Below, piece after piece: positions 29,092 through 53,601 of a DNA stretch of 64,000 nt (position 1 is its first letter; each line of letters begins with the position of its first letter). The notes below the pieces were generated by a model that saw only the letters and a program-made list of their open reading frames with translations, was not told where the DNA came from and did not search any database. Source of the DNA: Psilocybe cubensis (lineage: Eukaryota); contig CM039002.1 of assembly GCA_017499595.2 (NCBI GenBank), forward strand, positions 434,001-498,000. Direction: 5' to 3'. A program made the position numbers and the translations under genes.

Positions 29092-32010
29092 GAGGCGGTG
29101 GGGGAGGGGGAAGGAGACAGGCGCAGCTTTTGGCGCAGATGGAGGCGATGCGCGCTGCGCAGGTGCAAGTGCAGAGTGCGATGTTGGGCGTGGACGCGTC
29201 GGTGTCGGCGCGCGCGTCTGGGAACGTGACCGGTGATAATGTTAATACTGGTGCCGGTGCCGGAGCTAGCCGCAACGCGGGTGTCGATCGATCATCGCCA
29301 TCGCGGTTGGCTTCTTCATCGTCATTGTTGTCGGCATCGTCGTCGATACCGGGCGCCACTGCCGCTGCCGTTGTCACTGCCGCTACTGGTGCTGCTGTTG
29401 CCGGTGCGGAAGCAAATATGAATGTGCGCGGGTATACGCTTTCTCTTTCTGCAGGTGTGGAGTTGGATGATGGTGATCGTGCGGATGCGGAGTCTGATTT
29501 GGATTTGGATTCTGATTTGGATTCAGATGCGGATGATGCTGAGGCTCTGGACGGAGCTGAAGGTGAAGGAAAGAGAGGCGGAGAGGGAGGAGTAGGTGGT
29601 ACTGCGATTCATGTGCGTGTTTTTCTTTTTTTTTGCCTCGTTGTCTTTTTTGTCTTTTTTTTATATTTTCTTTCTTTGCTTTTTTGTGTTTGTGTTTGTG
29701 TTTACGGTTGGGGTTGAGTCTTTGACTTTGAGTCTTGAATCTTGAATCTTGGAACTTGGAACTTGGAACTTGGAACTTTAACTTTTTGGAGTGTAATTTT
29801 TGTTTTTGAACGGATGTGGTTCTGATTTATGATTCTGATTCTGATGTTACTCTTTCATCTCATTCAGCCTTCTCATACGCACACACATCCACATCCACAT
29901 CCACATCCACAATCGCATTCACATCCAAACTTGAATTCAAACTCCAACTCCAACTCGCGTGCACCGACGTCGTCTTCTTCCTCCTCGGCAGCGGAGAGAA
30001 AGCGCGCTGGCATTTCCACCTCGCCCTCGCCTAGTAGTCCGAGACAGCACGGCAAACCTAAGCCGAAGCAGCGCCAGACGCACGTGGTTGGGAGTGGGAG
30101 TGCGGGTGCGAGTCCGAGCAGGGTTCGCGCGGGGTTGATGGCGCGCTCGCGGTCGCGGTCGCGCGACCAAAGTGCTGTGTCGGCCAGTGTCGATGTGAAT
30201 CCTCCTCCTGCTATGGCGGCGGCGGCTTCTTCGTCTAGTGCACAGAGTCAGAGCGAGAGTGAGGGTCAGAACCGGGACCAGGCGCAGAAGGACGCACCGC
30301 AAACGCAATCGCACGCGCACGCGCAGAACCCGAATAGACTGTCGATCTCGTCGATGACAAGTGTCGTCTCGGATCGCTCGGGGCGGTCAAATGTATCATC
30401 CACCTCCAACGTCTCCAACACATCGAATGTAACCAACACGTCGAATTCGAGTGCGGGCGGAAGCCGCGCGGAGAGCACGACGACGGCGACGACGACGGAC
30501 TCGGCGTTCGAGCTTGTGTTTGTCGAGGGCGATGCGCGGCGTGTGAGTGCGGGCGGTAGAGATAAAGGGGAGGACGCGGCGGCGTTTGAGGATGGGCCGA
30601 TGGGCTTTGGCGGTGGTGGCTTTGGATCGGGTGTCGGTGGCGGTGCGGGTGTGGGTACGGGTTTGGGTGCGGGTGGACATGGACATGCGAGCGCGGATAC
30701 TGTGCGTCGTCTTGGATCGTTGTCGACTATTCAGAGTATGGCGACGTTGAATGGGGATCGGGAGAGGAGGAGGTATGAGTATGAGTATGAGTTTAGGGAT
30801 GAGCTTGTGGATCCGCTGGATACGAGCGCCATGGCCCAGGTTGAAAAGCAAGTACAGCAGGAAGAGAAGGGTAAGGATGAGAAGGAGGAAGAGAAGGAAG
30901 ATGTGTCGCAGGAGGTTGTTGTGCAGAGTTCACAAGGAGGAGGAGGAAATCGGGATGACATCGCGGTGGAAGACGAGGAGGATGAAGAGGAGAACACCCC
31001 GCTCTCGCCGCTGCCGCCGTCGCCCATGGCGCTGACCGCGTCGCCGCGCACTGCCGCTGGCGCCGCTGCGCGCGAGGAGAGGCGGAAGAAGCGGAATAGC
31101 GCGCCGGTGCCGGCTACGTCGTCCGCGGCTTTGCTCCTCGCCCTTTCGCCGCCATCCAACAACAACAACAACAACAACAATACGAATAATGCCCCGGTTC
31201 TTGTGCCGATGCAAGCGCAGTTCGCAGCGTCGCCGCGCTCTGTCACGTCCGCTGCGTCCGCTATATCAATTGCGCGCTCGACGTCGGGCGGCACGGGTAC
31301 AGCTGCAGGGAAGCGCAGGCAGATCACAGTTGGCGGCGGCAGCGGTGGCTCGGCGTTGATCAGGCGACAGAGCACGGGCACGAGCGCAGCGGCGGCGGGT
31401 ATTAGGCGTAGTGTCAGCGCAAGTCGTAGTCGGAGCCGCGAGCCTGGTGCGGGTGCTGCGGTGGGGTTGGCGGGTGCGGGGCTTGGATTGGGTATGACGA
31501 GTGCTGTGGCGCAGGTGCCGCCTGCTGCTGCTAATGCGAAGAAGGCGCCGTCGGTGGTGGCTGCTGGTAAGGGAAGAGCCAAGGTGGTTCTTGCGCGGAC
31601 GGGGAGCAAGGCGAGGAATTTGGGTGTGGTTAGGAGGAATAGCTCGGGACATGGTGGTGGTGGTGGTAATGCCGCTGCTGCTGCTGAGCAAGCGATGGAG
31701 CGGGAAAGGAAGAGGTTGGAAGAGGAGGAAGCGGCGCGTGCACGCGAGGCTGAGCTTGAAGCTGAGCGCGAGAAGGAGCGGGAGAGAGAACGTGAGCGTG
31801 AACGCGAGGCGGCGAGAGAGCGCGAACGGGAGCGCGAGCAGCGCGAGGGGCTGACGGTGGGTCTGTTCGACGGGGACGATCTCGCTGCGTCTGTGTCTGG
31901 CTCTGGTGCGAACGCGGGTGGGAGGAGGCCTGTGCGGTTTAATATTGGGTCCAACTCGGATGGCGGGCGGAGTGCGGGGAGTGGCGGGTCGGATGTGGGC
32001 GCGGCGGGCA

Positions 32011-32043
<33 letters not shown>

Positions 32044-34794
32044 GGGTGGTGTCGAAGAAGGATGTGGTGGCGCAGCAGTTGCAACAGTTGCAGATCCAGC
32101 ACCAACTCCAGCAACAACAACAGCAGCAACTTCAGCAGCAACAACAACAAATTCAGCAGCAGCAGCAGCAACAACAGCAGGTTGAGCAGGGCCCTAGTCA
32201 TGGACACGGACACAGACACAACCATGGACCCACTGCGGCCGAGCTTGAGCTGCAGAACCAGCAGCTTCAACACCAGCTCGAATTGATTGTCCAGCAGAAG
32301 CAGGCGTTGATGTTGCAGCAGCAGCATGTCCAGCAACAGGCGGCGCAACAGCATCAGCTGCAGTTGCAGCAGCAACAGGAGGCTCAGCAGCAGCAGCAAA
32401 TGTTATTACAGCAACAATGGCAGCAGCAGCAGCAGATGCCTGTCCAGCGAACGCTGTCCAAGTCGCAGGTGCGCCAGCTGCAGATGATGGAGCAGATGCA
32501 TATGCAGCATCTGAACCAGATGAACCAGAGCAAGGCGCATTTGGCTCAGCAACAGCAGCAACAGGAGGAGAGGAGAGGGAACGAGAGGCGGATGTCTGGA
32601 AACGGCAAGGGTAAAGAACGCGAGGTCCAACCCCCCGTTTCACCGCGCACAAAAGCTGGTTCCTCTACCGGAGGAGCGAAGGGTGGTAGAAACAACGCTA
32701 ATACCAGCAACAACAATAATAATAATAATAGCCAGAGCGGGAGCGGGAGCAGCAAGGCGGTGATGGATGATATCGCGGCTAGGGTGCAGCAGTCGATCGC
32801 GGCGCCACTGTTGCCACAGCGCAATCGGCGCAAAATCGAGTTGGTGACGGAGAGTGAGAGCGAGAGTGAGTTTGAGACGGACTCGGATGACGATGGGTCG
32901 TGGTCGAGCGAGGATATGACGGGGGATGATGAGGTGCGCTTTTTTTTTCTCTTCTCTTTTATATGTATCTAGATGTTCATGAATTGACTTTTTTGTTTGT
33001 TTGCGTGTTTAGGAGCAGCGTGCGTTGGAGGAACAGCGCCAGTTGCAGTTGCAACAGCAGCAGATACAGATGCAGCAACAGCAACAGCTTATTCAGATTC
33101 AGCAGGCCCAGCGTCAGCGTTTGCAGCAGGCCCACCACCATCAGCAGCAACAGCAGCAGTATAACCAGCAAACCCGCGCAGGCGGCGTCCAGCGCGCCTA
33201 CTCTGAACATTATCTCGCCAACCACCACCAGCAGCGCAACAACAACCACGTGGGCAATCCCGGCCGGCAACACCAAGTGCACAACTTCAGCGCGGCGATG
33301 CGCGCACAGCAGCAGCAGCGGGAGATGCAGGCCATGGTGGAGGCAGCGGCGTTCGAGGCGCACCGGCAGCTCAACATGTTTGCGAAGCTGCCGAAATCGT
33401 CGTTCCAGGACCTGGCGACCGCGCGGACGCGCAGTGTGGGCTTGCTCTCGCAGTTGTTGAATCCGGACCCGGAGATCTTCCCGGTGAATCATCCGTATAG
33501 GCGCGGGTTTAGTTATGGGGAGATTAAGCCTGGGGCGTCGAGGGGGGGAGCGGGGGGGAGTTCGGGTGTGGCTGCGATGCGCCCGTTGACGCCGGCTGCG
33601 CCTGTTGCTGATGAAAAGCCAAAAGCCCCTGTGGTTCCGGAGCAGCGCACGGATGGGTCTGCGCAACAGCAGCAGCAACAGCAGCAACAGCAGCAACAGC
33701 AACAGCAGCAACAACAGCAACAGCAGCAACAACAGCAACAACAACAGCAGCAACAACAACATCGTCGCAGCGAAAGTGGGACCGCGGGCGACAGAAAGTC
33801 GTCGGGGTCTAATGTGCCCTCGCGCATGAACTTCTCGCCGCCGCGCCGGCCAGGTGGAATGAACCGCACCAAGAGCGCCGCCGCGCTGCCTGTGTCATCC
33901 CATATAGCTGTTGGCAGTATGGGAAGCGCCGCCGCGCCAGTTATTGATCATACGTCCGCGTTGCCCAATATCACAACAGCAAACACCACTTCAAACAACT
34001 CAATCCCACACTCTAACTCTAACCCTGGCTCGTCGGGCAAGTTCCGGCCAAGGGCGCCCCCGCCGAATACGGTTATGGAAGACGAAAGCGCGAGCGAGGC
34101 GGAGGGAAGTAAAATTCAGCTGTCGGAGAGTGTCGCGCATGAGAAGCTCAGGGCGCTCTTGCAGCGCGGGGGTATTGCTTCTCAGCAGCGCAAGGCTCCG
34201 CCTCCAGCACAACCACTACGGCCCGCGGCAGCGGATGAGGCTGAGAATGAGAATGATGTTCCTCAGTGGCTTAGGGCGTCGCGGCCGGAAGATGGCACTG
34301 CTGCTGCTCGCCAGCAACAGCAGCAGCAGCAGCGCCAGCGTACGCGGTCTACTCCACATACAGTTCAGTTCGCGGAACCTCAGCCGCAGCCAATCCCACC
34401 TGCTGTGCCAATACAATATGGGTATCCCTACAATCTCCCCTTGGTAGCGGCGCCCTCGACACCACGTACCATACGTCGGCAAATGCTGTCCAACGAGCTG
34501 CCGGAAGAGTTGCGCCGGAACTTGTTGTGGGAAAGGCAGACGAGCAATGGGAATCTGGCCGCGATGAAGAGGAGTGCGAGTGGTGGTGGCAGTCGGCACA
34601 GTGTGTTGGGTGGATTGCAGCCGTTGACAGCGGCACCTAGTATGGTGCAGCTGCGTGCCAAAGGGACAGCACCGCCTGAAGGGACTATTGAAGACCTTCG
34701 GAACGCGCCTCCTGTTGACCAGCAGGAGAGAAAACGCCAGGCCATGGCACGAAATAAAAGCTGGGCCAATGATTTCCATACTTCGGGATGGTGA
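25731..34794 (+). CDS. DUF1752 (AreA N-terminal-like) + DUF3295 protein, Mks1-like, greatly expanded by low-complexity tracts (~2452 aa)
   Basis: Exons 25731-25824, 26403-26723, 27517-29612, 29868-32933, 33013-34794 join in frame (7359 nt). N-term MGAQFPVPVLAV...LWT|LFTKCKESLQEGRRLENISWRLWYREM; C-term PRTIRRQMLSNELPEELRRNLLWERQ...SWANDFHTSGW. Confidence 0.8.
33664..33759 (+). repeat. CAG/CAA polyglutamine tract (~32 Q)
   Basis: Uninterrupted CAA/CAG run in the last exon; several other poly-Q, poly-G, poly-S, (HS)n and (RE)n tracts in the same gene. Confidence 0.95.
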
Positions 34795-35935: not shown

Positions 35936-36641
35936 TTGCTATTTCCCTCTGATTTCTGCCAGAACATTGATGCTATCGATATATGAACTCGAAGGCGTCG
36001 TCGCGTCGAATTATAATACCGATACTAGTAACTTAGAGCATCAAGTAACACCGCACCTGAACCACGTACTGTACCAAGCGCTCGCTTGGTGTCGGTTCGC
36101 TTTTGTTCACGTTTCACGCTCTCATACTTTCATGTTTCCATGGCTTCAAGTCCATGCCGTCCATAAGTAGTACGCGTCACTCTAGTCTAGACTCTGCAGT
36201 TGTCGTATGGACTACATAATCAGGTACTTTATTATATTAGGTATGTTTGGAAGGTAAATTCGAGGGAAACTTCTCAACACAGGGGATACTTACTGAAGAA
36301 CACGGCGGGGGGTTATACTGTACCTGTACACATCGGAAATAACTGTAAATGACACATCCGCGAGCGTATGCGTATGCGTATGCGTGTCTTGTTGCTGTTG
36401 CCATCGATAGAGGCCATAGCCTCGCTTTCTGCCTGGCGCTGACTCTGTATACTTACCTGTACTTCCTATCCCGAGCACAACACCGACACCGTGACTTTTG
36501 CCATCGCCCCCCTTAAAGATGGCCAGGCGCTACAAACTAAACAGAAAAGTAAGTGCGCCTCCGACATCCATCCAATAACGGCAAGAAAGCACCGAGTCCC
36601 GAGTCCCGAGTCTACATTACTTTGACCCAGGAAAAAGTACA

Positions 36642-39600
36642 CTAGTCGTTACTGACATGCATCGCGTCAGAATCGAGGGTGTCTTCAGATGTGTCAACAA
36701 CACCCATCGAAGTATAGTCTCCAACCAAAACCTTTTCGCTCTTCTCCTCTGCTTTGGTTAACGCTGAATAATTCAAGAACTCATCTTCCACCCAATGCAA
36801 GCAGTCCTTTCCAATAGTCCAAAATGGTTTCATCTGATAGACATATTTTTGATCCCGGCCTTTAGGATGGGCATCGAACATCGAGCTAGGTGAGGCACCA
36901 ATGTTGAGAAGCGCATCGTATGCGTCTTGGGTGGATTGGTCTTCTGGGATGCAGCCATATACCCTGTGTGATCGCCCATAGAAGAATAGACTGTACCGTG
37001 GATGTCGCTCTGACGCATATTTCTTCCTGGTCGGTGGAGCAGCAGATTCTACATGAGACAGATTAGGTCTATGTGACCTCGGCCCCGTCGTTGGTTTTGA
37101 CTCTGGCTTTGGCAGTGGCTTTCCCTTTTGGATCCAATGATCAGTAGCCTCAACCACTAAAGATGGGGTTTTTTTTTTGTTGACAGGCTTGCCGAGCTCC
37201 ATGACAAGGGAAATATAAGGCCGACTCTTGTTCGCCTCATCAAGTGGTTCCACTGATCCACGAGGGTTTTTAGGACCGGGAAAGTAGAGAAGTTTGTCTG
37301 CATCGATGGCCACGGTTGACTGTGGAGACCATGCTCTGGGCAACTTGACTTGCACGAGAATACCGGACATGTTGCTCTCCATAATGGGTTTATCCTTGTG
37401 CAAGAGCACCGGGATGTGCAAGTCGACTGAGCCCTGCGCAGGCCCGCCAATCACTGCCATGCCTCTGACGAACGCAACCCAAGCCATCGAAGTTGTCACC
37501 GCCGCATCATCTGTGCCCCTTGCAAAATGCGTGAATCGCACCCATGCGTTCTTGAACGCTTCGCCTAAGCATTGTCTGTCAACCTTGGTGTCCGGCCTTG
37601 ATTCCAGCACTGTGGAGTGATATACCGTGGCGGTCAACTGCTTCAGGAAGGTGATAAGACTGCACCCATTTCTCCATGGATAGCTTTCGTGTTGTTCGTT
37701 GGCGGATTCCGCCTGGACTGCGGCCATGTACGCACGCAGAAGAATGATTTTGGCCACATTCTCCCCTTGCTGTCTCACGTCGAGCGCCTCTTTGGCATCG
37801 TCCGAAAGTTCGTTATACAATCTCGCCATAGGCTCCGGACAGGAAGCACTCGTAGTCATCTGAATGGTGTCCAATGCCGCTTCCGCAAGTACGGGTTCTG
37901 ATGGATACCCGCTGAACATGGGCATACCGTTCGTAGGCACAGAGAACGCCGTTCGCATATGATGCGCAACCATGCTATCGACGAGCTTGCGCGTCTGAAT
38001 TTTCGCTGGAGAATACTCGAGATTGAGAAGGGTGTCGAGGACGGCAAGCCTTGGCATGAGATTCGTACTGCGGAAAATATCTGATACCTGCGACAGGCCC
38101 GTAAGCTTCGTGATAGCAAACTTCCTGATTTCAGTTTCCCTGTCTCCATTATGCCCAAGAAACGCCGATGCCCATCTACGCACTCAAAGGAGTCAGTGCC
38201 TCATTGCTATGTATATAGTCAATTAAAACACATACAATGGACGGCCAAAATAGGTTATGAAATCGTGCTTCTGAATATCTTTGAGTGGCAGGTTTGGTCT
38301 GATTTTGTGATTTTGTAGCTCAGGGTGACAATCGAAAGGCATTTCTGTAAACGGGGCTATGACTGTGGATAAAGCTCGTCGCCTGGAGCTGTAGGACTTT
38401 TGAGGACCGGAAAAGCGACGGAGCCGAGAGGATATTGACAAGAAGAGAATGAAAAATGCGTAATCGCAATATGTAGCAGCTGCTTTAACCATGGCTTCAT
38501 AAAGCGTTGGCTGTGGCTTTGTATTCGTATGGGTAGGTCCGATCCGGAGCTCGGTTAGCGTATGGGCTTCGTCGACATAAAGGATCAAGCAAACAGTGTC
38601 TTCCTTGTTATCCATCGTTGGTTGCAATTTCTCCATCAGATTGCCAAGTTCCGTGAGCGAATTGTCTGATTGTGGGGCAGGAAAGGCTCCTGAACTGTAC
38701 TGCTCACACACAGTCTTGTAGAGGAGTGACCTGGAATTGGCTTTCGCCAAGTCATCCCTCAACAGGACAGGCAAAGACAGATTGCTGCCGCTTCGAAGCA
38801 ACACATCGACCTTGTTGGAAAACTCGCGGAATAGAATTGCAAAGAACTTATGGAAGGCCCCTACGGCGCTATCCAGATTTCTAGCCTTTGAAGCGATCAA
38901 CTTGAAAAGTTTTGTAAGGTCTTCATCGGGATGCGGATACGCACCTGAATACAATCGATTAAGGATATGGTGCACAGAGAGATGCCGTATAGACAGACCT
39001 TGCTCGTTGTCTCTGGTATCTCGTATATTCATGGGGATGGTCGCCACGAGTTTTGCCATTTCATCCACAGTGCGCGATTTGCCAAAGCCGGAAGATTGGA
39101 TAATCGCTGACGTATTTTCATATGGATTGTAGCCAATGGATTTACGTATGTTTGTGAGGAGATTTATGTGATGTTCCCCGTAGTATCTGGTTTCCCAAGC
39201 CACTGACATCCAATTGGCTATGTACAATATCATGAACCGTGGACAGCAAGCGTTTGGTATTACTCACTGTTAGGCACGCCTGCGTCCTCGGATTCATTGG
39301 GATCTTTGATCGAGCTTTCGTTCACTACAGTGAAGGCACCAGATGTCAGAATGAAGGCCAGTTTTAAGAGAGTAAAGAGTGCGCAGTGATGCCAACGAGC
39401 TCACCTCCCGTTGATACTCTTCCAATGCCAATGAGAATGTGCAGACAATCGCTGGAAATATCTTCAAAGATTGATGAAATCTTCTCCGAGTCGTTTGACA
39501 GTTTCACATAGTCGTCGATGTAAAGATCTTTTCGTCCAACATCATTGATCAGAAATGGGCCTGAGACAAGCCGAAGTTCGAGATCATGCGGGGTGGCATC

Positions 39601-39741
39601 GTCGATGTAAGGAAACCTAGGCTGCGACAGAAAAAAAATTGCACCCTTGAGGTCGCTGACGTTGTAGCGTGGGTGAGCAGAGACACTGAACACCTTGCTG
39701 CGATCGTCGCCATGAACTAAGCAGTTGAGTCTGAGTGCCAT
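36642..39741 (-). CDS. Crinkler (CRN/CR-effector)-like protein: ubiquitin-like header + P-loop NTPase + PD-(D/E)xK nuclease-like region
   Basis: Header MALRLNCLVHGDD...VFSV...VSDLKGAI...DLELRLV...CLHILI; Walker A IIQSSGFGKSR, Walker B LILYVDEAH; GYPSEPVLAEAA; GENVAKIILL...FTHF...VDLHIPV...ILVQVK; about 5 exons, no internal stops seen. Confidence 0.75.
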
Positions 39742-40019
39742 AGCGAAGGACGGTGGACCGAACAGAGGATTAACACAAAAGCTCTTTGTTGAATCCAAAG
39801 TTCTGAGTTTGAACGAGAAATTCACACGAGGCCTATCGACTGGGTAGTAAAGCAAGTATAATGTACCTTACATCCCAATGAAACTTATACCCTGCATTCC
39901 CGCAAATAAAGTACCCTACATTCCGATGTCTATAATGGGTTATTGGAAGGAAAAATTGTTCTCGGAAGCGCCATTATCTGGGTTAACGGAAATTTTTTCC
40001 ACTGGCATCATATCAATTG

Positions 40020-40500
40020 AGGCATGAGCATCATTCTCACTCATGTGTTGGAGAGCTTTCTGTTAATGTGCTGATAGAAATTGTGGTGTACGCCTCGATT
40101 TTTAGTAGAGTGTAAAGGTTTGCGGTTGGATTCACTTTAGGATGCTGAACGAAACTTTGGCCCAAGCATCATTTTCATGAACGCGTCAAAGTCTGCGCTA
40201 ACGATCACTTTGCACGGGTGACACAAATTGTGGCCTGGAGCTTCATTTTGTCCTAACATGTCAATCTCTTGGTCAAATTTGATTTATTATGCAGATAGAA
40301 ACTTTGGTGTGAGCATATCAAAATTTGGCCAGAGCATTATTTTCATTCATATGTCAAAGTCTGCAATAACACCCATTTTGCAACAAGCCTCACAGAGATT
40401 GCAGCTGGAGCATCATTTTTTCTAGTAACACCTCAAATCTTTCGGTGCAACCCCTTTACTATCCACCCTAAATATTGGTCTGAGCACCATTCATCCTTCA
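40020..40500. repeat. Degenerate dispersed repeat array (core GAGCATCATTTT)
   Basis: Core variants near 40026, 40165, 40238, 40332, 40408, 40482; longer ~170-bp-period similarity between 40151-40215 and 40321-40384. Confidence 0.6.
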
Positions 40501-41405
40501 AATACTCAATTTCGCTCTCAGAATCACTTTCAAACATCTTGGTCTAAGCGTTTGTCATACAGCGGAGGTGGTATCCACATTCAACTTTAGGGTTACGCAC
40601 AGACCTCAAATTGTTGAGGATGTCTTTCACGCATTCGGAATCACACATGGTATTATCCATGTCGGAAAATCCCGGAATGCCTTGCAATGTCTACAAGGCA
40701 GAAAAGGCAGTAGCGGAATTGTAATGCCTTGCAATTTGAGTAGTTAAATCATAAGAACGGTTTGAATTGCAATTCTAAGACAGACTACAATGGATATATG
40801 AAATCATGATGTAACATAGACATTGCAAGGGTTAGAAGCGTTTACAAGGCATTGCAACCCCATCCATATCGGACTACCATTACAACCGTATCTACTAATC
40901 ACCTGCGACGACTATTAGGATCACTGGTAATGAGTAACTTACTGTGGGCTTACATTGTGAACTAGATATTCCTTACCGTTGCTGTGTAGCATTACTTACT
41001 TACTTACTCAATGTTACTGTAGAGGTTACTTACTTACCTGAATTAATTTAATTGACTTACCTGGTTCGATCGCGCGACTTCATGCCTACACTAAGAGAGG
41101 GAGACTTACCACTAGTCCAAACTGCCGTTAAATAAGTAGAAGTTTAGGTTAATATATTAGGTAGCAACTATTCGGTTGCAGACCTGCCCACCGGTGTAAC
41201 ACATGTCACATGCATGTAACACCGTGGTAAATATTGAGCGCCTATCGTGATAATTGCTTTCCAGAGGACAAAACATACCGTTTTGCGCTACAAACCTCGT
41301 AATACAAACAGATATTGGATTGTAGAGTCACGTAAATCGAATTTAGCCATTATGAAACAAGTTTACATCTCAAAATTCATGTAATTAATGCTGAAAAGAT
41401 ATGCC

Positions 41406-43498
41406 TTAGACAGCCCCTTTGCCTGAGCGGCCAGAACGTCGTAGAGGCTCTTGTTGAGAGCTATTAGAGAATGATCGAGCACCAGAACCACGACCTCTTC
41501 CCCTCCTGCGACTCGCTCCTATGGGAAGTTGAGGTTGTATTGGTAAATCTTACATGTTTATGAACAAATGATTAGTTAAAGCTTTGAATACAATGGACAA
41601 AGACCACTCACTTGCATTACTTGCAGCAGGCTCTTCCCTCTGAGGTATGCCCGAATCGATTGCAAGCTCTTCTACACCAGTGTGTGGTGTGCTTGTTGAT
41701 GAATCTGGTCTCGAAGGGATGCGATGATTTTGGCTTGGATTAGGACTACTATTACCTATATTGACATATCAGTATCATATCCTAGTTTGAGCTCCAAGAC
41801 ACGAGTTCAAATCAGAAAATACAATACTCACTTGGTGTAGAATAGGGTATGTCAACGTATTCTATCCCTCCTTCACTGTCATCATCACTGATATTCAGAT
41901 TTTCTAATGCTCCTGAGCGCTGTAACCTTCTGGTCAGGCCTTTGTTGTGAGATTGTTCTTCTAAATCAGTGTCTGTGTCGGATGGTGGACGCGCCAAATT
42001 TGATGAGCGCATAGCAGCAAAAATGTCGTCTACCTGATCGTCTTGTTGGCTGTTGGGGTTCTGAGAATTGGTATTTTGCTGATTACCACTGGTATCCTTG
42101 TCTTTTCTTTGCTTTGTAGCACTGAACAACTGGGTGTCCCATTTTCCAATAAGTCTATCGTACCATTTGCTGTTTACCTTCTTGCTTCGAATTATAATCT
42201 TCTTGTATGTGTCGAAGTCGCCAAAGTAAGTGTTTGAAGATTTTTCACCAACCCCTGTAGACGTAAATTCAACATCGTCCGAAAGCAAGAACCTTGCCTA
42301 AATAAAAATCTAATGTAAGTCTAGTAATAAGTGTAGCGAGCAAATTAAAACAAACCATGATTGCACACCAGGCAATCATTCCTTCTGTTACCTCAATAGG
42401 GCGATCATCTCGATAGTACGTATTGTTGATTCGGATTTTAGTACCACCAATCATATCAACTGCATTGGGGCCATACAGAACAATTCGTGCGATCTATGAC
42501 AGAAAATTAGCAATACAATCTAAACAAATCCGAGTCCATCAATAGCAGCAATAGATCATGCTTACTTTGAAAAGAATTGGATTTAGAAAGAGATCGTCAA
42601 CCTGGCTGGGGTCGGAATCCTTATATAAAACCGCCGGAAAACGAGATGTAAAGTCACAGGCACCATTTTTGTCCTTTAAAAGATTTTGAACGTCAGGCAT
42701 GGTGCTTCGGGATGCAGTGCCACGTTGGAAGTAAGACGCTGGCATGCCAAATATTTTAGGGCAAGATTTACGTAGCCTATCTAGACACTGGGACCGGACA
42801 TCTTGTAGAGCAGTAATAAACTGTTAATTAACATTGTATAAGCGAAATAGGCAGCCAGTAAAAAGGACAATAGTACCGTCTTTCGAAAGCTTGTTCCAGA
42901 CTTCATGTAGGAATGGAAATCAGGAGCAATGCAGTCAAACAGCTCCGCATATATCCCACGTAAGGCTAGCGCTTGTAACTCGTGCTCCGATACCTCAACA
43001 CCTTGTGGTGTTTCATAGCGAGCAGGGTCATTACAAGCAAATGCTGGCTTTTCCATCATATTATTAAACCAATTTAGTTGTGCATAGGGTGAGTAAAAAA
43101 ACTGAAAACACCGGCCAAATTTCTTAATTTGCTCCTCTATAATAACAGCTAGGTCTTGTTTTGTCTCTGCTTTCTGTCTGAGCTGAAGATCGGCAACGAT
43201 GGTTTTCAGTTTTAATAGCTCTTTGCGCTGTTCTAGAATTGTAACATGGGCGCTTTTAAGGGCCTAGAATAGCATTGACAAATATCAGTCATATTTTAAT
43301 CTTATAGAAAGAATAAGTTACCTCTTGCATATCTTTGAAGCTGACACTATCATCAAGTGCCCGCTCGATAATTTTCTCCAATTCTGACTGAGAAATTGCA
43401 TCTTCATTTGTTGGCATAGTAAACGGTGTCGTAGATTTGTCAGACTCGGAAGATGAGTCATCGAGAGCTGTTATGTTTCGTTGAGTATTGGATGGCAT
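41406..43498 (-). CDS. Transposon accessory protein of unknown function, multi-exon
   Basis: Spliced: MPSNTQRN...coiled coil...FPAVLY...LFLNPILFK|IARIVLYGP...VTEGMIAWCAIM|ARFLLSDD...YFGDFDTYKKII, basic tail RGRGRGSG; lies inside the TIRs. Confidence 0.7.
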
Positions 43499-43663
43499 GG
43501 TCTAAGTGAATGAGAAGAGTAGTAGCTTGGACTGAATAGCAAAGACTTACTTGAGTAGCTTATATAGCCTTGTAAACAATGCAATCTCGAAGTTAAAGTC
43601 ATATTTATGGATACAAGTTCCATTATGCCGATAATGAGCCATTCAATTGGTAAGAGTTTCTAC

Positions 43664-46600
43664 TTATAGAACTACATGCTTGACTAGTTTTACCGACTTT
43701 AGCCGCCACCACATGTCTTCATCAATTACATCAATAATTATATACTCATCTACTTGGTGTGGTGGTCGGAATGCTTGCGCTAATAAGCCTCCTCGCACAA
43801 TGGATTCCACATTAATGAATGCCGCTTTGGAGCGATGTCGAGAGCGGACCCGAATAAATCTAAGTTTCTTGTCTGATATGCGATGATTTTCCAATGCAGG
43901 TATTGCTTCGTCCAATGGTAACACAAGGGCCATGTGATAAAGAGTCTCTTCAACCTTGATTCCGATGACATAGAGGAGCTGGACAAATATGTAAGTGTTC
44001 TTCTCTGAATCCACTTGAATAAGGGCATGATCATATCGTTTTCTTCCGTGGAATGAAGGGTTTATCCGTAGAATATTTCTCTCTGTTTTCCAGGTAATTT
44101 TGGACTCGTAGTTTACCTCCATGTATTGGTATGGAGTAATCTATAATTGCTGTGTTATCTCTGTGGATTATAAATGCATAGATACACGACGTACCACATC
44201 ATGCTTGTCAAACCGAACTGGTTTTCCGAGATGCCTTGATAAAGTTTGTCCAAGCTTTTTGCGAAAGCCATGGAATGCTATGTCGGATGAATGCTGTCTC
44301 TCATGTTCGGAAAAACTAATTGCTGGCAAATATGACCCAAGCGACACATGATGAGTCCCAATTATAGTAGATTCCTGTTCGTCTTCAACTTCAGTGGTAT
44401 TAAATTCGTCCAGATGATCCAGTGCCCCTCGTATCATATGACACGCAAGATCCTTCTCATTCAGCTTTGATATCTAAGGTTTGAAACAAAGTAAATATTA
44501 GTAAGAGGCTATAGCAGCAACTCAATGATTATTTACCTGAGGAATTACATTTTTGAAATTAGTATGAAGCTGATAAAATGACTTTAAAATAGAATGTGCC
44601 TTTTCATTTGGCTTTGTATTATAGTTCCGTGTGACTCCCTTATCTCGAATATCATCAAAAAGATGTCGAAATGCGTGGGCTTTAGGAAAATTCCATGATT
44701 TGTCTGGAAAGTCGGCTGAATATGCCTTAATTTAATGTCAGTAATTGTTTGTGGTGCTAATCATAGGCTGACAGGTCATTGACATACACATAGAAGCTCA
44801 CAAAATGTTTTGAGCTCAGCTTCTCCACTTTGTAATGTGTCCTCTGTATGAACTGTAAGGCCAGAATACATGTCAAGCTCTAGATAGCTCCGTATAACTT
44901 CTAATAGCCGGAAGCCTTGCTCAGATACATCTTGTGTCAAGATATCTTCGGATGCAAAAACAATAATCTTGGAAAACATGTGTTAGTTACAAATATTAGT
45001 ACCAATATACAAATACCTTTGATATATCTTCGTACTTTGTTCCATCTGTGAACTCTCCTGCTGATTTCATCAGTGTTCTGAAGTGATTAAGCCCACTCCA
45101 ACGCGGAATTTCGTCGACTCTAAAATTATCAAAATAAGCGCCCAAGTGTACCAGTGATAATTATAGAGTACAGTTATACCTTTCGTCAATGAGTGCTGCA
45201 GTTTTTTTACCTAGATTGTTTACAATCTTCTGGTACTCCTCCCATAAGTGATCAGAGAATACGCCTCCATGGTTGTTGTGTAAGCGGTCAAATGATAGAG
45301 CTTCATAAATGTCAGTATTCTGGATTTGTTGGAAGACATTCTGTGACAAATTTTGGCATTGATCAACGAGTTTATTGTCCAGTATAATGTCAATACACAC
45401 CTCTACGTTGCGCAAACCGTACATTTGCAGAAGCTTATCCGCATCTGTCTTGTTTAATTCCTGAGCTTCGTCAAATATGTCTCCCATTTCTTTAGCTGAT
45501 CGTAAAGGATATATTGTTGTAAAATCAGTGAGATTTTCGTGTGGCACAAGGCATCTAGGGCAAGGAAAATTGCTGTTTGTACCACGAATTAACGCCATAA
45601 CACATCTAAAAGCTTATAGTTAATAGATTTATAGTTTAGCTATCAAATAAATGACGTACTGCTCCTCATAATCAGCCGATAAAATTAGTATAACAGGGTA
45701 TATCCATCGTTGAAAGTCCTTTTGAGAAAAATAGAACCCAGTTTTTGCATGATCTACTAGACTTTGGATGATTTCATAGAAGGACTTGTGCCAAACAACC
45801 CGTTTAAAGTTGATAAATCCTTTTTTACCTGTTTCCCCTGCATCTTCCTCAACCTGTATACGATATAGTTTGCTTTAGATTTGTAAAGGCTTAAAAAAAG
45901 AAATATATTAATCACTCACAATCGGCAGAAAGCCTACAACTCTACCACCACCTACACCTTCACCATTTCGCAGATTTATAGGGAGATTTCCACATCGAGC
46001 CATGACTGGATATCCCTTTTGTGTTCCAAATGAAGATAACCGTGTTTTATCAGCATACAAAATTATGCACAGTAGTCCTGCACCATTGGGTAGCTTTGAC
46101 TATTATCAAAGGTAATAGAAGTTATAGTATTTTTCTTTTTAAAGCATGTATACTACATACCTGTGCTTTCCACCATGCATTTCCAGTCCACGGCTCATCA
46201 ATAAATCGCTTCCATTTTTGGGCGCTAGCATCAAACTTATAATGCCGCTCCGCATCCCATTTGAATTTTGGTGCAAGAGTTGGATTTTCCAATAAGCTTA
46301 AGCACCAGTCCCAAATTGGACGAAAGGCGAGATCAAAGCTGTTCTCTTCGCCTTTGTATGGAACTGTGATAGTCTGAGTGGAAAACTAGATGATATTGTC
46401 TGATTAATATAATAATCTCACAAGTAAAAAATAACTTAAACATACTCCTTGAGCCTTAAGCGCTCGTGCATGTTCCCAACAGGCTTCAAGATCCTTTCAA
46501 TCCTTGATTGTAAAAGTGTCCGGGTTTTTTATACATTGGTGAATAATTGATAAGAGCGTGGAAGTTTGGGATGAATTCAAATGCGAATCATGCATGAACT

Positions 46601-47344
46601 CTGCAAGCTCGAAGTCAAGGCGAGTACGGAATGGAAGCCATGGTTTCCTATCCACATTCTTGGGCTTAGTCTCCGGGAGTGTTGATTTGTAGTCCTCAAA
46701 ACGGAAGATCTCGTCAACTTGTTTAGAACTCGGATGGTATTCAATCTTTATGTCGTCAGCAATGGCTTGTATTGGTATGTTTTCATCCCCACCCCCACCG
46801 TCATGATGATCTGAGCTTGTATCCTCTGTATCATGTACTAATTTTTTGAGAGGAAATTGACCTCTGATCAGAATGCCCAGTGTGTATTATTTATGACAAT
46901 GAATATATCTACCAGAAGCTAGTCCATCGGGCTCTAACTCTTCACTATGGCTGCTATTTTGGTCGGGTCCACCTCCCTCTTTACTGTCTAAATCCCACTC
47001 TACAGAATGTTTCGAAGGCCTAGTACCGCCCAGTGTAGCTTCTAACTGACTGGTCGAAGAAAATGTGTCTATCAATTATTATTGTATATATGAGGTATGT
47101 ATCAATAAAAACATAGGTTTTGAAACTTACTAGAGTGTGCATATCGTTTCAAAAGATCATCATACGCTTGACGTTCGCTCTCATTGTCCAATGCCAAATT
47201 TCTGGGTCCTTGTGTTGCTCTGCAACTCGCAGAGCGTTGATGTCCAGCTAATCCTCGTTTATTGACCTCTTTGTTGCAATAAGGGCATACCACAGTTCCT
47301 GCTGTCTTGCGGGTACTGCTCTTGGTGATTCTGGATGGTGCCAT
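43664..47344 (-). pseudogene. Plavaka transposase with a premature stop
   Basis: N-terminal CPYC...H...C zinc finger, PWLPFRTRLDFELAEF, ILYADKTRLSSFGTQKGYPV, LSADYEEQ, FPCPRCLVP, FDRLH, WNFPKAH, YNTKPNEKAH, NPSFHGRKRYD; in-frame TGA at 46497-46499 (TIKD*KDLE). Confidence 0.82.
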
Positions 47345-47742
47345 ATAGATCAGGAGAAGGTTGTGGGAAGGAACAAGCGATGATTCACCTTCCTTACGAC
47401 TGCCTTACGATGCCTTGTGATCGGTGAGAGCCTTGTGAGATAATTATAGCCTTGCCAATTTACCCGGCCTATTATAATCTTACAGAGAAAAATGCAATGC
47501 CGATGAGGCACATCGCAAGGCACCTCACAACGGCAGGAACCGGCATTGCGATCTATTTTGATTGCAAGGTAGTCTCACGTTTTCCGACACATTAACCACA
47601 GAACCAGCGAGCAGTTAGAATCCTGCAGAATGTACAAATGCATATTTAATACACAGTGATTCAAAATGATTCTTTTGGCACCAATTCTTGAGTTGCCATG
47701 ATTTGATGCACGGGGTGACGGGCCACATACGGGCCACATATG

Positions 47743-48042: not shown

Positions 48043-48306
48043 TGGAAGGCTGTCGGTTCAGGCAGCCTCACTACAACACGGAAAGGACAATGTTCTCCTT
48101 CGTTGCGTAACGTCTAGTTAATACAGTGTAACTACTATATAATATACTACTCACCTTCGTTGCGTAACGTCTAGTTAAAGCAACGAAGGTGAGTTTGTTG
48201 CTCTTTTGTTCTTCGGCCTTATTACTTGGCTGATTTGATTAGCGAGGTCCCAATCCGGCTTCCTCTGTGTGTGCCCGCAAATGTGTGGTATGCCTCCAGG
48301 CTTACA
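48043..48306 (-). repeat. 3' LTR
   Basis: Identical to 53338-53601 except one G/A difference (48102 vs 53397) on visual comparison. Confidence 0.97.
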
Positions 48307-48357
48307 CCCCTCCCCCCTCTGAAAAATTACCGGGGTGAAAAACTGTTCTCCCATTCC

Positions 48358-51300
48358 CTAGGTCTGTTTGTTGTTTGCTTCTTCTTCTTCCCATCTGTCG
48401 AGTGCTTCGTTATCTTCCAGCATTCGTCCTGGAAGCCATTCATCGTGTTCCTTTCCAAAACCCGCCCAACGTACTAAATATTGCATCCCTCGACCTCGCT
48501 TCCTTGCGTCAACTATCTTCTCCACTACTGTCTCTTCTATTCCTTCCTCTGTAATGACTGTTGGTGGTCTCACGAGCTCTCTGTCTGGGAACATTTCCGG
48601 GTCGTTTGGCACGAAGGGTTTCAACAGGCTGGCATGAAATCCTGGGAAGGTCTTTGGGTTATTTGGGAGTCGCAGTGTGTATTCAGATCGCTCGGGAAAC
48701 GCTGATTCTACCAGATATGGTCCATCGAACCGTGGCATGAATTTGGCAACTCTCTTCTTTCCTTTGCGCTTGTAATTCCGTCGACGGTTCTTTGTAGAAA
48801 GCATTACCATATCGCCCGGCTTATACTCAATTTCGTCCCCCCGTTGTTCATTTGCTTGAGCTGCTTGTCTAATTTTTGCGGCTTGTAGTGCGTCTTTTGC
48901 CTCTCTGACGTCAATCTCCACCTTTTCAATGATCTCTCTAGCTGTGATCTCTGCCAACGGAGTGTCGTCAGTTGCTTGTGTGAGCGGTGGGATTATTCGT
49001 GGTGATCGGCCTGTTTTGAGCTGAAAACCCAAGTACCCTGTTGACGCATTTACTGTATTCATCATTGCAAATCGGATTCGCGGCAGTTTGTCTAACCATC
49101 CCTTTTGGTTCATATCAACGTAATAGCATATCGCTTGATTGATTGTCTTGTTGGTGCGTTCACTTGCGCCATCTGTCTCTGGGTGATATGCTGTAGACAT
49201 CTTGATTTTAACATTCAGTATCTTGCAGATGGCTGTCCATAGTTCCGACGTGAAGATTGCATCGCGATCACAAATCAGCTCTTCCATTAATCCATTCTCA
49301 AAAATCCAGTGGTCCACCATTACGGATGCAATCTGTTCTGCTGTCCAGGATGAATGAGTTGGAATAATTTGGATGTCCGTACCCAAACGACACGTCATTG
49401 TGAGTATAGTGTCTTGTTCCTTTTCCTCGGGTAAAGGGCCAATGAAATCCAATGCTACAGATGTGAGACGTTTGTCGGGGACTGGGAGTGGATGGAGAGG
49501 GCCTGCAGGCTTCGTCGTTCGATCTTTGTTTCTCTGACATTCAGTGCATGATGGTATGTATGCCTTCTCAAGGTCTTTCCTCATGTTGGGCCAGTAGTAC
49601 GACCCATGTAGTGCCTCATATGATTTATCAAATCCAAAATGTCCCAACGAGTCATGAGCCAGATAATATATGCGTTCACGAAGTTTCTTGTTGTTGGGAA
49701 TTACCAGTCTCTGCCCTATGTAGATCAGCCCGTCCTTTTCTTGTGCATTGGGTAAGCTCTTCTTCTGAATCGCTTCACGGATTTGTCTTGCAAATGGGTC
49801 ACTCAAATATCCATCTTTGATTGCCTGGACAAACTCCTTGTCGATGGAAATTTCCAGCACTGCTCCAACGGTGGCTCTGGTTTTACGACTTGGGTTCCGA
49901 GTATACGCTAACGCGCAAGCTGCAAATCTTGGGTTTGGTTCTTCATCTGGCATTCGTGATAAGGCATCTGCCGCTGCATTTTCTTCTCCTCGGATGTAGT
50001 GTATTTCGAAATCAAAATCGGCCATGTACATTGACCACCTCATCTGGCGACGTGACATGTCTTTCTGGGCCTGGAAATATTCCAACGTTCGGTGATCCGT
50101 ATAGACCTCAAATTTCACTCCTAACAGGCTGCTGCGCCACTTCTTTAACGCTTTCACTATAGCCAAAAGTTCCTTCTCGTGTGTGGGATAGTTTTTCTCA
50201 GCATCCTTTAGCTGATATGAATCATAAGCCACGGGCCGTGCAGTTTCCCAGCTTTTTCCAAAGCTCAGTACTGCCCCTGTTTGACGATCGCTTGCATCCG
50301 TAGTGACGTAAATCTTTCCTTCAGGGTCATCGTAGTTGATAACAGTTAAGCATTCCGCACTAGTGACCAGTTCCTTGATGGCGTTGAAGGCTCGATCATG
50401 ATCGGGTGTCCAGGCGGGGAACTCTCGATCATAATCCTTACTCGTTAAGGGTGTTAAGATGCTCGTGTATTCTGCAAGCGCTGGAAGGAAAGCTGCGAGA
50501 TATCTTGTGAGCCCTAGAAATCCCCGCACACTTGTAGCATTTCTCGGTCGTGGCCAATTTTTTACTCGATCAGTCTTTGCAGGATCTGCGTGAATTCCTT
50601 TTGCTGAAATGACATGGCCCAGAAAGGTGACTTCCGTTGCAAAAAGTATTGATTTCTTGGCATTGCAGTAAAGGCCCGCCTTTCGAAGTGATATTAAGAC
50701 TTTTTCTACCCGTTCTGACAGTTCCTCGAGACTGTTTGCCCAGATTATGATGTCGTCTAGATAGACGTGACAGATAGAGGCAATGAGCTCTCGTAGTGCA
50801 TCAGTCATTCGGCGTTGATGAGTTGCTGGTGCATTCTTTCCCCCCATGGGCATTACTACCCATTCGTATAATCCCCACGGTGTGCGTACTGCTGTAAGAT
50901 GTATGTCGTCGGGATGTACTCGTGTTTGGAAAAAACTGTTTGTCATATCAAGTTTTGCAAAGAACTTTCCTCTTCCGCAATCTGCAAGAATGTCATCCAC
51001 TCGAGGAAGAGGAAATTTGTCGGCAACCGTGTTCTTATTGATCTCGCGATAATCGTTTACCCATCGTGGGGGCACTGACAGATCTGGTACTCCATTCCTG
51101 TATTTAGGGATACAGAATGCCGGTGATGCATATTCCGATGATGATGGTCGAATCCGTCCTGCTGCCAGGTGTTCCTCCAAAAGCTTTTTCCAGGAATCAT
51201 GATACTTTTTTGGAGCTGCATAACCCTGACCTGCGTGTACCTTATTCTTGTTGACTAGTCGTATTTGATGATAAATATGGTCTGGGATGTCTACGTTGTC

Positions 51301-52986
51301 TGGGAGACGGTCAGGAAATCGATCTTTGTATTTTTCCTTCATTTCTTTATCCATCCGCTGCAATTTCTCCTGGAACAGGACATGGTCAATCTGCTCATTA
51401 ATTGTTGCAACCAAAAGCTTTGCTTGCTTGGGCCCAACCTGCGATCGTAGTTTCTGCTCTTTCTCCATAGCTGCTCGTCGCTTTGCTGCTTGATCTATTC
51501 TTGGACCCACTTGAGATCTTTTTTCAAATCCGGTATCCTTTGTAGATGCAGGCTTTTGTTTTGGAGGGTTCATTAAATCGTAACCCGAGCGCTTATCAAT
51601 TGCAGTCCGCCCCATGGTGTCAATGACTATATTTTCAGATGAAAGAAATGACAATCCAAGAAGAAGAGGTACAGATAAATTGCGATGTATTTTTGCTTTG
51701 TGTGTCCGTGCTTTCCAACTCCCGTTTCCTGACGATATCTTTATCTTCACAAATTCCCTGCATTCCAATGGTGTGTTGTCAATAGATGATAGATTATCTT
51801 CTTCAGAAGGCAAAGGATATTGATGGAGGCCGAGTTGGGTGACAAGTGCGTCATCAATCACTGTGGAGGGGGAGCCAGTGTCAAGCATGGGTCTGATGCG
51901 GAATGGAAAATCCACGACTGCCGGCCCCTCAATTTCCATCACAGGAAAGAGGTGGGGAACTGTCATAGATGTAGAAGGGACGTACGAGTCAGAATCAGTC
52001 TCTTCGTCATGTATAACAAATGATGAGGACGATGTGTTAATTTGTCCTACAGGCAACGCTTTCTTTGCGCCTTGAGTTTTGGCGTCGTGATCACGCTTTG
52101 CTCTTTGCGCCATTTCTTCCGTGAGGGGCTTGTACCCAACTGCTGACGGCCATCCGTTTGGACATTCCTTTGCACGGTGGCTGACATAAAACTGTCGGCA
52201 CTTGGTGCACCCGTCATGATTGTTGAGAAGCTGGCGCTCTTCGGGTGTGATCTTTGGCAATACCGCCCTTCTGTTTCCAAGTAGAGTGTTGGATTGTGGG
52301 CCCGTGTTTGTGTAGTTTGGACCATCATGAAGGCGTTCCAGTAAGGATTTCTTCTCCTGTTGGCGTGCGGCAACTCTACTTGCATAGCTGGCATCGATTT
52401 GACGTTGCGTGCGCGCCCGTTCTTCGCCTAGTCTGTCGTCGCGATCTTTCACCTCTAGGGACCACGCGGCTAGTTCAGTAGCTGTGACTGGCTCAAATCC
52501 TAACGATTCACGCAGTTCCTGATTGAGGTGCGATTCGAGTTGCACCTTCAATGCATCGCTTGTAAAGGCGTATCCAGCGGGGGCCATGGTCTTTAGAATC
52601 GCATTCAAGTTCTCCATCTCGATCTTCTAGTCAATAAAGACCCGATCTCCTTGATACGACGTCAAAATCTGTTCGCGTACTTTATGCGCCCATTTCTTCT
52701 CCAATACAAGGGTTTGCAGCTCCTCCAAGTATTTCTCTAATGTCAACTCATTGATCCGTGTCGAATCGGCTTGGTACCAGGCTACCAGCCTTGGTTCTTG
52801 CATTCCATCGGCCACAAATTTCACGACCTCCTTTGGCGACTTGTCTGCGTGCTTCATATATTTGCGGCAAGCCACTCCCCACAACTGCATTACCAACGGG
52901 TTTATCTTCCCCGCAGTGAGGATTGGAACATCCTTCATCTTGTTCTGGATGACCGTGGCAAGGGGTTTGTCGTCATCGCTTGGCAT
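48358..52986 (-). CDS. Gag-Pol polyprotein in one frame, interrupted by one TAG in gag
   Basis: Zn knuckle CTKCRQFYVSHRAKEC, protease MLDTGS, RT YLDDIII, RNase H TTDASD, integrase HHCC and DFIG/DRD/E, chromodomain YLVRWAGFGKEHDEW; in-frame TAG at 52627-52629; start codon inferred. Confidence 0.92.
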
Positions 52987-53337
52987 TTTGACAACGGTGG
53001 GCAATTTGGTGCGATTGTGATGATCAGTGGTCCGATTGACGATCGGCGTGAATAGGGGCGTGTGTATGTGTTGGTCTTCTCCTTCAGTGTCTGATTTCAA
53101 GGAATCTGAGAAGCTGGAGTTGGTTGAGACTGACGGTGACGGTGGTGGTCCTTGTGGCTCGGTACGCGGTTTGCGGAAAACGGAGAGGCCTGGAACTAGG
53201 TCAGATGGCAGACCTAATGCTTCTCGCCTCCTTGTAGACTCTCGAGTGGTTCGAGGCGGTTCGGTCGACAGTTTGAACAGTGAGCGGTGACGGTGACGGT
53301 GGGCGACAGCGGGACGTTGTCGCTTTCAAAAAAAAAG

Positions 53338-53601
53338 TGGAAGGCTGTCGGTTCAGGCAGCCTCACTACAACACGGAAAGGACAATGTTCTCCTTCATTG
53401 CGTAACGTCTAGTTAATACAGTGTAACTACTATATAATATACTACTCACCTTCGTTGCGTAACGTCTAGTTAAAGCAACGAAGGTGAGTTTGTTGCTCTT
53501 TTGTTCTTCGGCCTTATTACTTGGCTGATTTGATTAGCGAGGTCCCAATCCGGCTTCCTCTGTGTGTGCCCGCAAATGTGTGGTATGCCTCCAGGCTTAC
53601 A
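53338..53601 (-). repeat. 5' LTR
   Basis: Direct repeat of 48043-48306. Confidence 0.97.

Follow-up and report, generated by a model that had tools for sequence, protein, structure and literature searches.

We found that the Psilocybe cubensis gene JR316_0005630, hereafter CR1, belongs to the known CR (Crinkler-RHS-type) architecture, in which a ubiquitin-like (Ubl) header is followed by a nucleoside triphosphatase (NTPase) and, here probably, a restriction endonuclease (REase). From its sequence and structural models, we read the product as an intracellular NTP-gated DNA nuclease that would serve defense or non-self killing, and we give this reading a probability of roughly 0.45; action inside the fungal cell, in defense or genetic conflict, is more likely than use as a secreted weapon. 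The gene was analyzed within a 64,000-nucleotide stretch of P. cubensis DNA (positions 434,001 to 498,000 of contig CM039002.1, assembly GCA_017499595.2), which we call the window; feature coordinates are those of the window unless another locus is named.

Gene model and protein domains

The gene lies on the minus strand, with its ATG at 39741 and its stop at 36642, and is divided into five exons by four GT-AG introns (80, 50, 54, and 60 nt; Table 1). The spliced coding sequence of 2,856 nt encodes 951 amino acids (aa) with no internal stop; over the last exon it is 100% identical to the public 951-aa protein of JR316_0005630 (P0001), and mapping P0001 onto the genome recovers the identical four introns. 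An intact spliced gene with a Crinkler-like ubiquitin-fold header, a QSSGxGKSR plus hhhhDEAH NTPase, and a C-terminal E...D...QVK pattern had been proposed in a first-pass annotation made from the letters alone, and each of these elements is in place: ELRLV at aa 55, CLHIL at aa 99, QSSGFGKSR at aa 172, ILYVDEAH at aa 325, E579, D692, and VQVK at aa 715. The full-length structure model has a predicted local distance difference test (pLDDT) score of 78 and a predicted template modeling (pTM) score of 0.79, with the header poorly modeled (pLDDT under 65).

The header (aa 1-112) matches the Pfam Crinkler family PF20147 over aa 3-104 with a score of 46.2 bits (cut-off 24.6), and the family scores above cut-off in all four P. 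cubensis copies of the gene. The literal oomycete motifs LxLFLAK and HVLVxxP are absent, with LELRLV and CLHILI at the matching places. There is no hydrophobic N-terminal stretch (best 9-aa hydropathy 1.53 within the first 30 aa), which agrees with the earlier remark that a signal peptide is missing. This absence does not set the gene apart from secreted Crinklers (CRNs), however, because Zhang et al. (2016) excluded signal peptides for CRN headers generally (PMC5289972).

The segment aa ~135-550 models as a STAND/AAA+ NTPase with a probable winged helix. In structural searches with the full-length model, it matches STAND and AAA+ folds at Z 8-10.9. The closest folds, at identities of 8-14%, are Avs3 and Avs4 together with PAB2304 and SSO1545 (PDB 8dgc, 8dgf, 2qen, 2fna): Avs3 gives Z 10.9 (root-mean-square deviation, rmsd, 5.3; 283 aligned), and archaeal PAB2304 (2qen), the whole of which is spanned by aa 133-543, gives Z 9.4 (rmsd 5.2; 292 aligned). 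Further neighbors are ORC/Cdc6, plant NLRs, and, at Z 7.2-8.8, TnsC and MuB. Avs proteins carry their nuclease first and a repeat sensor at the C terminus, whereas here the nuclease comes last and there is no repeat sensor. Walker A K178 and Walker B D329/E330 are retained, and both motifs are conserved across the family alignment, A2. Residue 375, which adjoins the sensor-1 position, is Ile in CR1 and Thr in 88 of 94 rows of A2, Ile being unique among the 94. Between NTPase and nuclease, aa 481-548 are modeled as a helix-helix-hairpin, possibly a helix-turn-helix (HTH), and the 2qen alignment runs to the end of that structure. Pfam AAA_22 is present in four of 33 family members scanned, and neither a NACHT or NB-ARC match nor a repeat family was found in the 33 and a further 51. 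A dimer prediction for aa 133-555 with ATP, which left homolog alignments unused, scored 0.00 and is given no weight in either direction.

The C-terminal part (aa ~552-915) probably has the REase (PD-(D/E)xK) fold; we make the assignment because the structural matches are consistent and the catalytic residues conserved, and not on any single score. In a structural search with a separate model of aa 552-915 (pLDDT 82), proteins that we take, in part from entry titles, to share this fold fill the top 13 rows and 44 of all 50. The best and sixth matches are the Mrr-like modification-dependent endonucleases MspJI (Z 5.3, rmsd 4.3, 130 aligned) and AspBHI (Z 4.3; PDB 4f0p, 4oc8); the N-terminal nuclease of Avs4 also appears, at Z 3.3. 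MspJI and AspBHI have the site motif D..QxK, as does this protein, but no SRA methyl-reader domain is seen here and the Z scores are low. In alignment A2, the putative catalytic residues are conserved in 98 of 105 rows (E579), 95 of 101 (D692), 88 of 102 (Q716), and 93 of 100 (K718). A PDB sequence search with the A2 profile gave four matches, all at E > 1, Pfam gave none over this region, and the ESM Atlas gave only unnamed basidiomycete clusters.

Family distribution and header exchange

Searching with aa 130-900 yielded 98 proteins; those that are named all come from mushroom-forming fungi, as do nine more representatives. At E ≤ 0.001 the family profile hits 8,013 sequence clusters, and at 1e-30 it hits 1,943; the family's named members span many orders of mushroom-forming fungi, most without any Pfam domain. 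A profile search aimed at named distant relatives recovered 23 fungal members of the family and one spurious short match, and it showed no link to oomycete or chytrid CRNs. PADLOC gave two single weak matches among 33 members, none of them for this protein. We found no functional study of the family in mushroom-forming fungi in the literature, although Zhang et al. (2016) may list it.

The 141 headers compared fall into 40 clusters, 80 in a single helical-looking cluster and only eight with the Crinkler header, which Pfam detects in one of 51 further members. We built a FastTree tree of 44 cores (of 46 chosen, two had no Walker A match and were dropped). In it, all four P. cubensis proteins fall within a group of P. 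cyanescens proteins (support 1.0 and 0.999) whose core is 56-67% identical but whose header is helical and unrelated, and the Crinkler header is seen again in Ephemerocybe, Cyclocybe, and Dendrothele. The tree indicates that the Crinkler header has been exchanged more than once, by gain or loss. The commonest header (P0016 aa 15-115 and 79 related) is helical without a Pfam match, and an ESM Atlas search with it found no named fold above the bar. Of 136 headers, 22 have within their first 40 aa a basic cluster resembling a nuclear localization signal (NLS), against 4.5 ± 2.1 in shuffled sequences (maximum 11 in 200 shuffles; kinship among headers is ignored in this comparison), and six have a hydrophobic N-terminal stretch.

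These data bear on the reading in which the header, as in oomycete CRNs, would deliver the nuclease into competing fungi, bacteria, or grazers, unconventionally or by contact or ingestion. CR1 does have a bona fide Crinkler header, CRNs are secreted and translocated by means of their N-termini, which hold no true signal peptide (PMC5289972), and the header is among the fastest-changing parts of the gene (75-86% nucleotide identity between copies over codons 1-40). However, the rarity of this header in the family, the unrelated header of the close P. cyanescens relatives, and the enrichment of NLS-like starts make delivery into other organisms unlikely.

Four copies under constraint and conversion

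Three different queries, one of them distant, located four loci in the genome, such counts being lower bounds: CR1, a tandem pair CR2 and CR3 (C5:521732-528786), and CR4 on C11. All four are open and have the identical four introns. Measured in 40-codon blocks, identity between copies varies between 54% and 100%, and different pairs are closest in different parts of the gene, which we take as the mark of patchwise gene conversion. In the reference sequence of CR4, Glu replaces the lysine of QxK. Positions private to a single copy number 114. Tandem duplication, patchwise conversion, relocation, and header exchange all contribute to turnover in the family, much as in conflict genes. A block private to CR1 at aa 340-400 was considered as a compensated frameshift, which is ruled out by a gap-free codon alignment across aa 368-404.

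Comparison of the copies supports constraint on the conserved sites and reading frame. We observe no stop codons, against 3.0-6.2 expected per copy pair under neutral decay (the pairs are not independent), and of the 18 coding indels 16 have lengths divisible by three, with both exceptions confined to the last 80 nt. Amino acids vary among the four copies at nine of 128 family-conserved codons and at 115 of 386 unconserved ones (P = 2e-8), and pN/pS at family-conserved sites is 0.11-0.29. A binomial excess of amino-acid-variable unconserved codons (P = 0.006) was set aside, given multi-hit codon bias and equally high local synonymous change. A dispensable copy could also be kept looking intact by conversion from a functional one.

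Expression and strains

Four of 14 listed sequencing runs, which span three studies, were mapped. No listed run that contains the gene is registered as RNA, but two of those mapped, X10 and X11, both from one study, are RNA, since their contigs skip introns and have zero depth over 40841-44500. Introns 2 and 3 are skipped in both and intron 4 in X11, while intron 1 is represented by a near-joint or a loose end (Table 1). Among 36 RNA variant rows inside the gene or immediately past it, with 241 further rows outside the listing, we compared 30 with the copies: 26 match the CR4 allele, 12 of these CR4 alone. Of the RNA alleles seen, most are those of the C11 copy and not of CR1. A 3′ flank specific to CR1, which below 36523 has no match in the three other loci, is present in RNA with 0 differences at depths of 22.9 (X10) and 14.2 (X11); the CR4-type 3′ end reaches 88.1 and 134.4, and a neighboring DUF3295 gene 94.6 and 192.4, although contig depth is a poor measure of expression and contigs carry no strand. 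A CR1 private block at 38366-38402 is found in no RNA contig of X10 or X11. The raw DNA reads of X13, from another strain, carry this block at single-copy depth, and in that run the gene has a depth of 115-146, against 25-38 over the Plavaka transposon stretch described below, which corresponds to ~3-4 copies. Nine of the 14 listed runs contain more than half of the gene's sequence words.

As checks, the first-pass annotation had named expression and the ratio of nonsynonymous to synonymous substitution (dN/dS), with a neutral ratio in the absence of expression counting against it. The answer is divided: Whole-gene dN/dS is near 1, but conserved sites and frame are constrained and spliced family transcripts exist, even if most of the RNA alleles belong to CR4.

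CR1 itself might be a recent, dispensable duplicate drifting to loss, only some other copy being of consequence. Its whole-gene ratio, its unique Ile375, the absence of its private block from the RNA contigs, and a KDZ transposon inserted 88 bp upstream, past whose equivalent point the RNA of a paralog extends, would all fit. We nevertheless think this improbable: This copy has an undamaged reading frame and splice sites and retains every putative catalytic residue; it departs from consensus at nine of 128 conserved columns, near the family median of 8%; and its 3′ flank is in RNA and its private block in another strain's DNA. CR1 may now be a weakened member, with a transposon 88 bp upstream and a private change beside sensor-1.

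Possible functions and comparison with known systems

In the reading that we favor, the STAND-like NTPase and winged helix would keep the C-terminal nuclease inactive. The trigger, a foreign or non-self protein or an invading nucleic acid, would be read by the exchangeable header or the hypervariable patches, which we propose as the sensor because there is no repeat sensor domain. Nucleotide exchange would free the D692/Q716/K718 site, and cleavage of DNA would destroy the invader or kill the hyphal compartment.

P. cubensis is a saprotrophic mushroom, and most relatives of CR1 carry a helical header and no Pfam domain; in both respects the gene differs from the CR effectors. It resembles them in having tandem head-to-tail copies near transposons and exchange at the header border, as well as in domain order (Ubl header, NTPase, and probable REase, here with a possible HTH before the REase) and the lack of a true signal peptide (PMC5289972). 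CR proteins, according to Zhang et al. (2016) as reviewed, combine a header, which is not a signal peptide, with toxin domains; over a quarter of them pair NTPase with REase, and they occur in free-living eukaryotes as well. A published proposal holds that the NTPase regulates the REase and that some CR proteins are directed against invasive DNA inside the cell (PMC5289972).

Several observations weigh against an NTP-gated nuclease in defense. The best Z score of the nuclease (5.3) is below the 7-8 that is typical, with the search tool used, of models without a clear match. Foldseek found nothing at E ≤ 0.001 in the PDB with either the full-length or the C-terminal model, nor among viral models, where two Mrr-like entries appear at E 0.59 and 1.5. 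A C-terminal repeat sensor of the NLR kind is absent, and the four P. cubensis proteins have neither an NLS-like match nor a hydrophobic start. In 26 of 79 full-coverage homologs (CR1 included), at least one of eight key positions is changed, and the most visible transcript type is that of CR4, with Glu for the QxK lysine in the reference. Finally, whole-gene dN/dS between copies is 0.72-0.86, or 0.84-1.08 after transition correction, with no value different from 1, and positive selection is not shown because local synonymous change in the variable patches is as high as amino-acid change. The idea in the first-pass annotation of a maintained intracellular nuclease with a defensive, cell-death, or selfish role is therefore partly supported: The header, NTPase, probable REase, transcripts, and selection on conserved sites speak for it, while the arguments brought forward for it are weakened. 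The REase fold that it named is likewise probable on structural matches and catalytic residues, with Foldseek and Pfam silent.

A selfish toxin-antidote element may also be considered, in which the nuclease would kill nuclei or spores without the gene and the NTPase part or a catalytically altered paralog would give resistance. Medea1 of Tribolium (CR-NTPase8 plus CR-REase7), which kills embryos, and the Wolbachia CifB REases are precedents for an NTPase followed by an REase in a eukaryotic genome near mobile DNA (PMC11342252). Spok of Podospora is, like CR1, a fungal multi-copy gene with a restriction-endonuclease-like domain, which is required for killing and targets DNA (PMC9972908), and a Crinkler-like genomic parasite is reported in free-living hosts (PMC12957317). 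Tandem copies, conversion mosaics, the relocation of one copy within a 5.2-kb insert that interrupts a GMC oxidoreductase duplicate, and the supply of most RNA alleles seen by a QxE copy would be in keeping with such an element. We see no presence/absence polymorphism, however, given ~3-4 copies in X13 and the spread of the gene's words over the runs, and the REase7 signature of Medea1 and CifB (a His three residues after the active-site Glu) is absent from the D..QxK site here (Q716-V-K718-L-P). Killing is the phenotype of Medea1, and CR1 differs further in its Ubl header; the partner of the Spok nuclease is a kinase-like resistance domain and not an NTPase, a comparison made by description and not by sequence. 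On balance we regard a toxin-antidote role as rather unlikely.

Fungal NLRs share with the defense nuclease proposed here a basidiomycete STAND-type P-loop NTPase, and Crinkler is also reported as an N-terminal NLR domain (PMC9815663), but CR1 lacks a Pfam match to NACHT or NB-ARC as well as any repeat domain, and its C-terminal part is modeled as an alpha/beta fold of probable nuclease type. In Coprinopsis, incompatibility is linked to kinase, NACHT, and LRR genes, with somA combining all three, and the effectors of basidiomycete cell death and non-self rejection are described as largely unknown; that preprint uses neither the word nuclease nor the word Crinkler (10.64898/2026.06.24.733965).

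Genomic context

Table 1. Features of CR1 and its surroundings (window coordinates)
Feature	Position	Strand	Remarks
Exon 1	39405..39741	-	aa 1-112; Crinkler ubiquitin-like header wholly in one exon, then phase-1 intron; PF20147 aa 3-104, 46.2 bits
Intron 1	39325..39404	-	80 nt, GT-AG; RNA near-joint 39324-39406 (X10); loose ends at 39326 reading exon 1 (X10, X11)
Exon 2	39268..39324	-	57 nt; acidic linker; pLDDT under 50
Intron 2	39218..39267	-	50 nt; RNA joint 39217-39268 in X10 and X11
Exon 3	38999..39217	-	NTPase start; Walker A QSSGFGKSR at 39098-39072 (aa 172-180)
Intron 3	38945..38998	-	54 nt; spliced although it is in frame and free of stops; RNA of both X10 and X11 skips 54 nt
Exon 4	38236..38944	-	NTPase core; Walker B ILYVDEAH at 38585-38562
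Divergent block private to CR1, in exon 4	~38300-38599	-	aa ~340-400; includes Ile375
Intron 4	38176..38235	-	60 nt; 60-nt skip in X11 RNA
Exon 5, aa 441-555	37833..38175	-	Helical lid and probable winged helix (GYPSEP motif)
Exon 5, aa 556-915	36753..37832	-	Probable PD-(D/E)xK (Mrr-like) nuclease with insertions
Putative catalytic codons	E579 37763-37761; D692 37424-37422; Q716-V-K718 37352-37344	-	Conserved in alignment
Exon 5, end	36642..36752	-	Acidic disordered tail and stop codon
Copy-specific 3′ flank	36172..36552	-	In RNA contigs with 0 differences; probable 3′ untranslated region; contigs give no strand
KDZ target-site duplication, left copy	39822..39829		8 bp; right copy at G000:C5:521732; KDZ begins 88 bp upstream of ATG
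KDZ (Zisupton-like) transposon, left end	39830..40659		Of 15-kb element; 99% copies on C6, C8, C13; outside gene
PlavakaA transposon	40660..47589	-	Nested in KDZ; TGT..ACA ends, both terminal repeats, 2-bp duplication
Chromodomain Gypsy long terminal repeat (LTR) retrotransposon	48043..53601	-	Nested in KDZ; 5-bp duplication
DUF3295 neighbor gene	29826..34794	+	Convergent with CR1

The KDZ element that begins upstream of CR1 spans window positions 39830-55865 and G000:C5:505362-521731, where it ends against the 3′ flank of CR2. The arrangement indicates that CR3, CR2, and CR1 formed a head-to-tail array that was split 88 bp upstream of the CR1 ATG by the KDZ insertion, because the right end of KDZ adjoins the CR2 3′ flank with a perfect 8-bp duplication. 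Zisupton and Dileera elements generate duplications of this length (PMC12730594), and we find perfect ones at all three KDZ copies examined (C5, C6, and C13); copies elsewhere lie at C6:472061-487190, C13:100059-115725, and C8:704313 onward. The C6 copy encodes a KDZ-type cysteine cluster (CxC4, PF18717, 151 bits), while the C5 copy is without the transposase region and has been enlarged to 48 kb by nested elements. The element has asymmetric ends, a subterminal inverted repeat, several cargo frames without a Pfam match, and long tandem repeats near its right end. CR1 as KDZ cargo is ruled out, the gene lying outside the KDZ duplication. Within the KDZ left end, an X10 RNA contig skips a 51-nt GT-AG intron on the plus strand (40308-40360), which means that at least one copy of this end is transcribed and spliced. 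At the far end of the array (G000:C5:529053-530318) lies a copy, 67-85% identical, of the 3′ part of the DUF3295 gene (window 32789-35742), and the three-gene array is therefore flanked by an old direct repeat.

The neighboring elements had been described as decayed and the intactness of the gene beside them as a sign of maintenance. In part the elements are indeed damaged: Just upstream of the Gypsy pol frame there is an in-frame stop (52627-52629), and the C5 KDZ copy has lost its transposase region. However, the Gypsy LTRs differ at only one of 264 nt, its pol frame is open over 1,422 aa, and both it and PlavakaA have intact ends. Together with the splitting of the array, these features indicate that the neighbors are young and that the gene predates what is a single nested insertion; for this reason its intactness is not evidence of maintenance.

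CR4 lies within a 5,205-bp patchwork insert (G000:C11:664532-669736; L009:1033-6237) that is absent from a 98-100% identical duplicate of the GMC oxidoreductase region, with the empty site at C11:612865. The insert has a 2-bp duplication and no terminal inverted repeats. Both a terminal-inverted-repeat transposon and a canonical Helitron are ruled out for it, its ends lacking the features required of either. It also holds fragments resembling a C1 repeat, a dispersed 132-bp repeat, and tandem arrays on C7 (C7:2760202-2790891 and C7:191721-235649, with periods of ~9.9 kb in four copies and 7.8 kb in five to six).

That the gene might itself be an autonomous transposon, using NTPase and REase as transposition machinery, is suggested by the link of such pairs to prokaryotic transposons (PMC5289972), by TnsC and MuB among the structural neighbors, and by the relocated copy. 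We consider it highly improbable, because the copies share no termini: Around the four loci, which are all that were found, there are no common ends, terminal repeats, or target duplication, and the insert on C11 is pieced together from unrelated fragments.

Further features of the window are noted for completeness. Low-complexity tracts of Gln, Ser, and Ala abound in the DUF3295 neighbor (25528-34794), whose introns are unusually long and full of repeats. Inverted repeats (80-190 nt long, 80-83% identical) pair 21880-22174 with 35540-35935 and 22637-22792 with 24084-24241, and 22407-22454 resembles 49 nt of the CR4 header (86%). Positions 54001-64000, inside the KDZ span, are CpG-depleted (observed/expected 0.35-0.69) and hold further transposon-like frames and a Pro/Ala repeat frame at 57804-59378.

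Significance

The gene by itself is unsurprising, because its architecture has been known since 2016. The value of the finding lies instead in a large family in mushroom-forming fungi, and not in the intactness of CR1 beside transposons. A bolder idea, which we hold to be speculative and doubtful, is that the QSSGxGKS NTPase-nuclease family forms a large, unstudied class of mushroom killer genes, either non-self executioners or Medea/Spok-like drivers, whose specificity would be rewritten by header swap and patchwise conversion, and in which catalytically altered, highly expressed paralogs such as the C11 QxE copy may act as antidote or sensor for active ones like CR1. The commonest, helical header of the family merits separate study. 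Because P. cubensis can be cultivated and carries four natural variants, of which one is altered at the QxK lysine and another beside sensor-1, the function of the family is directly testable in it.

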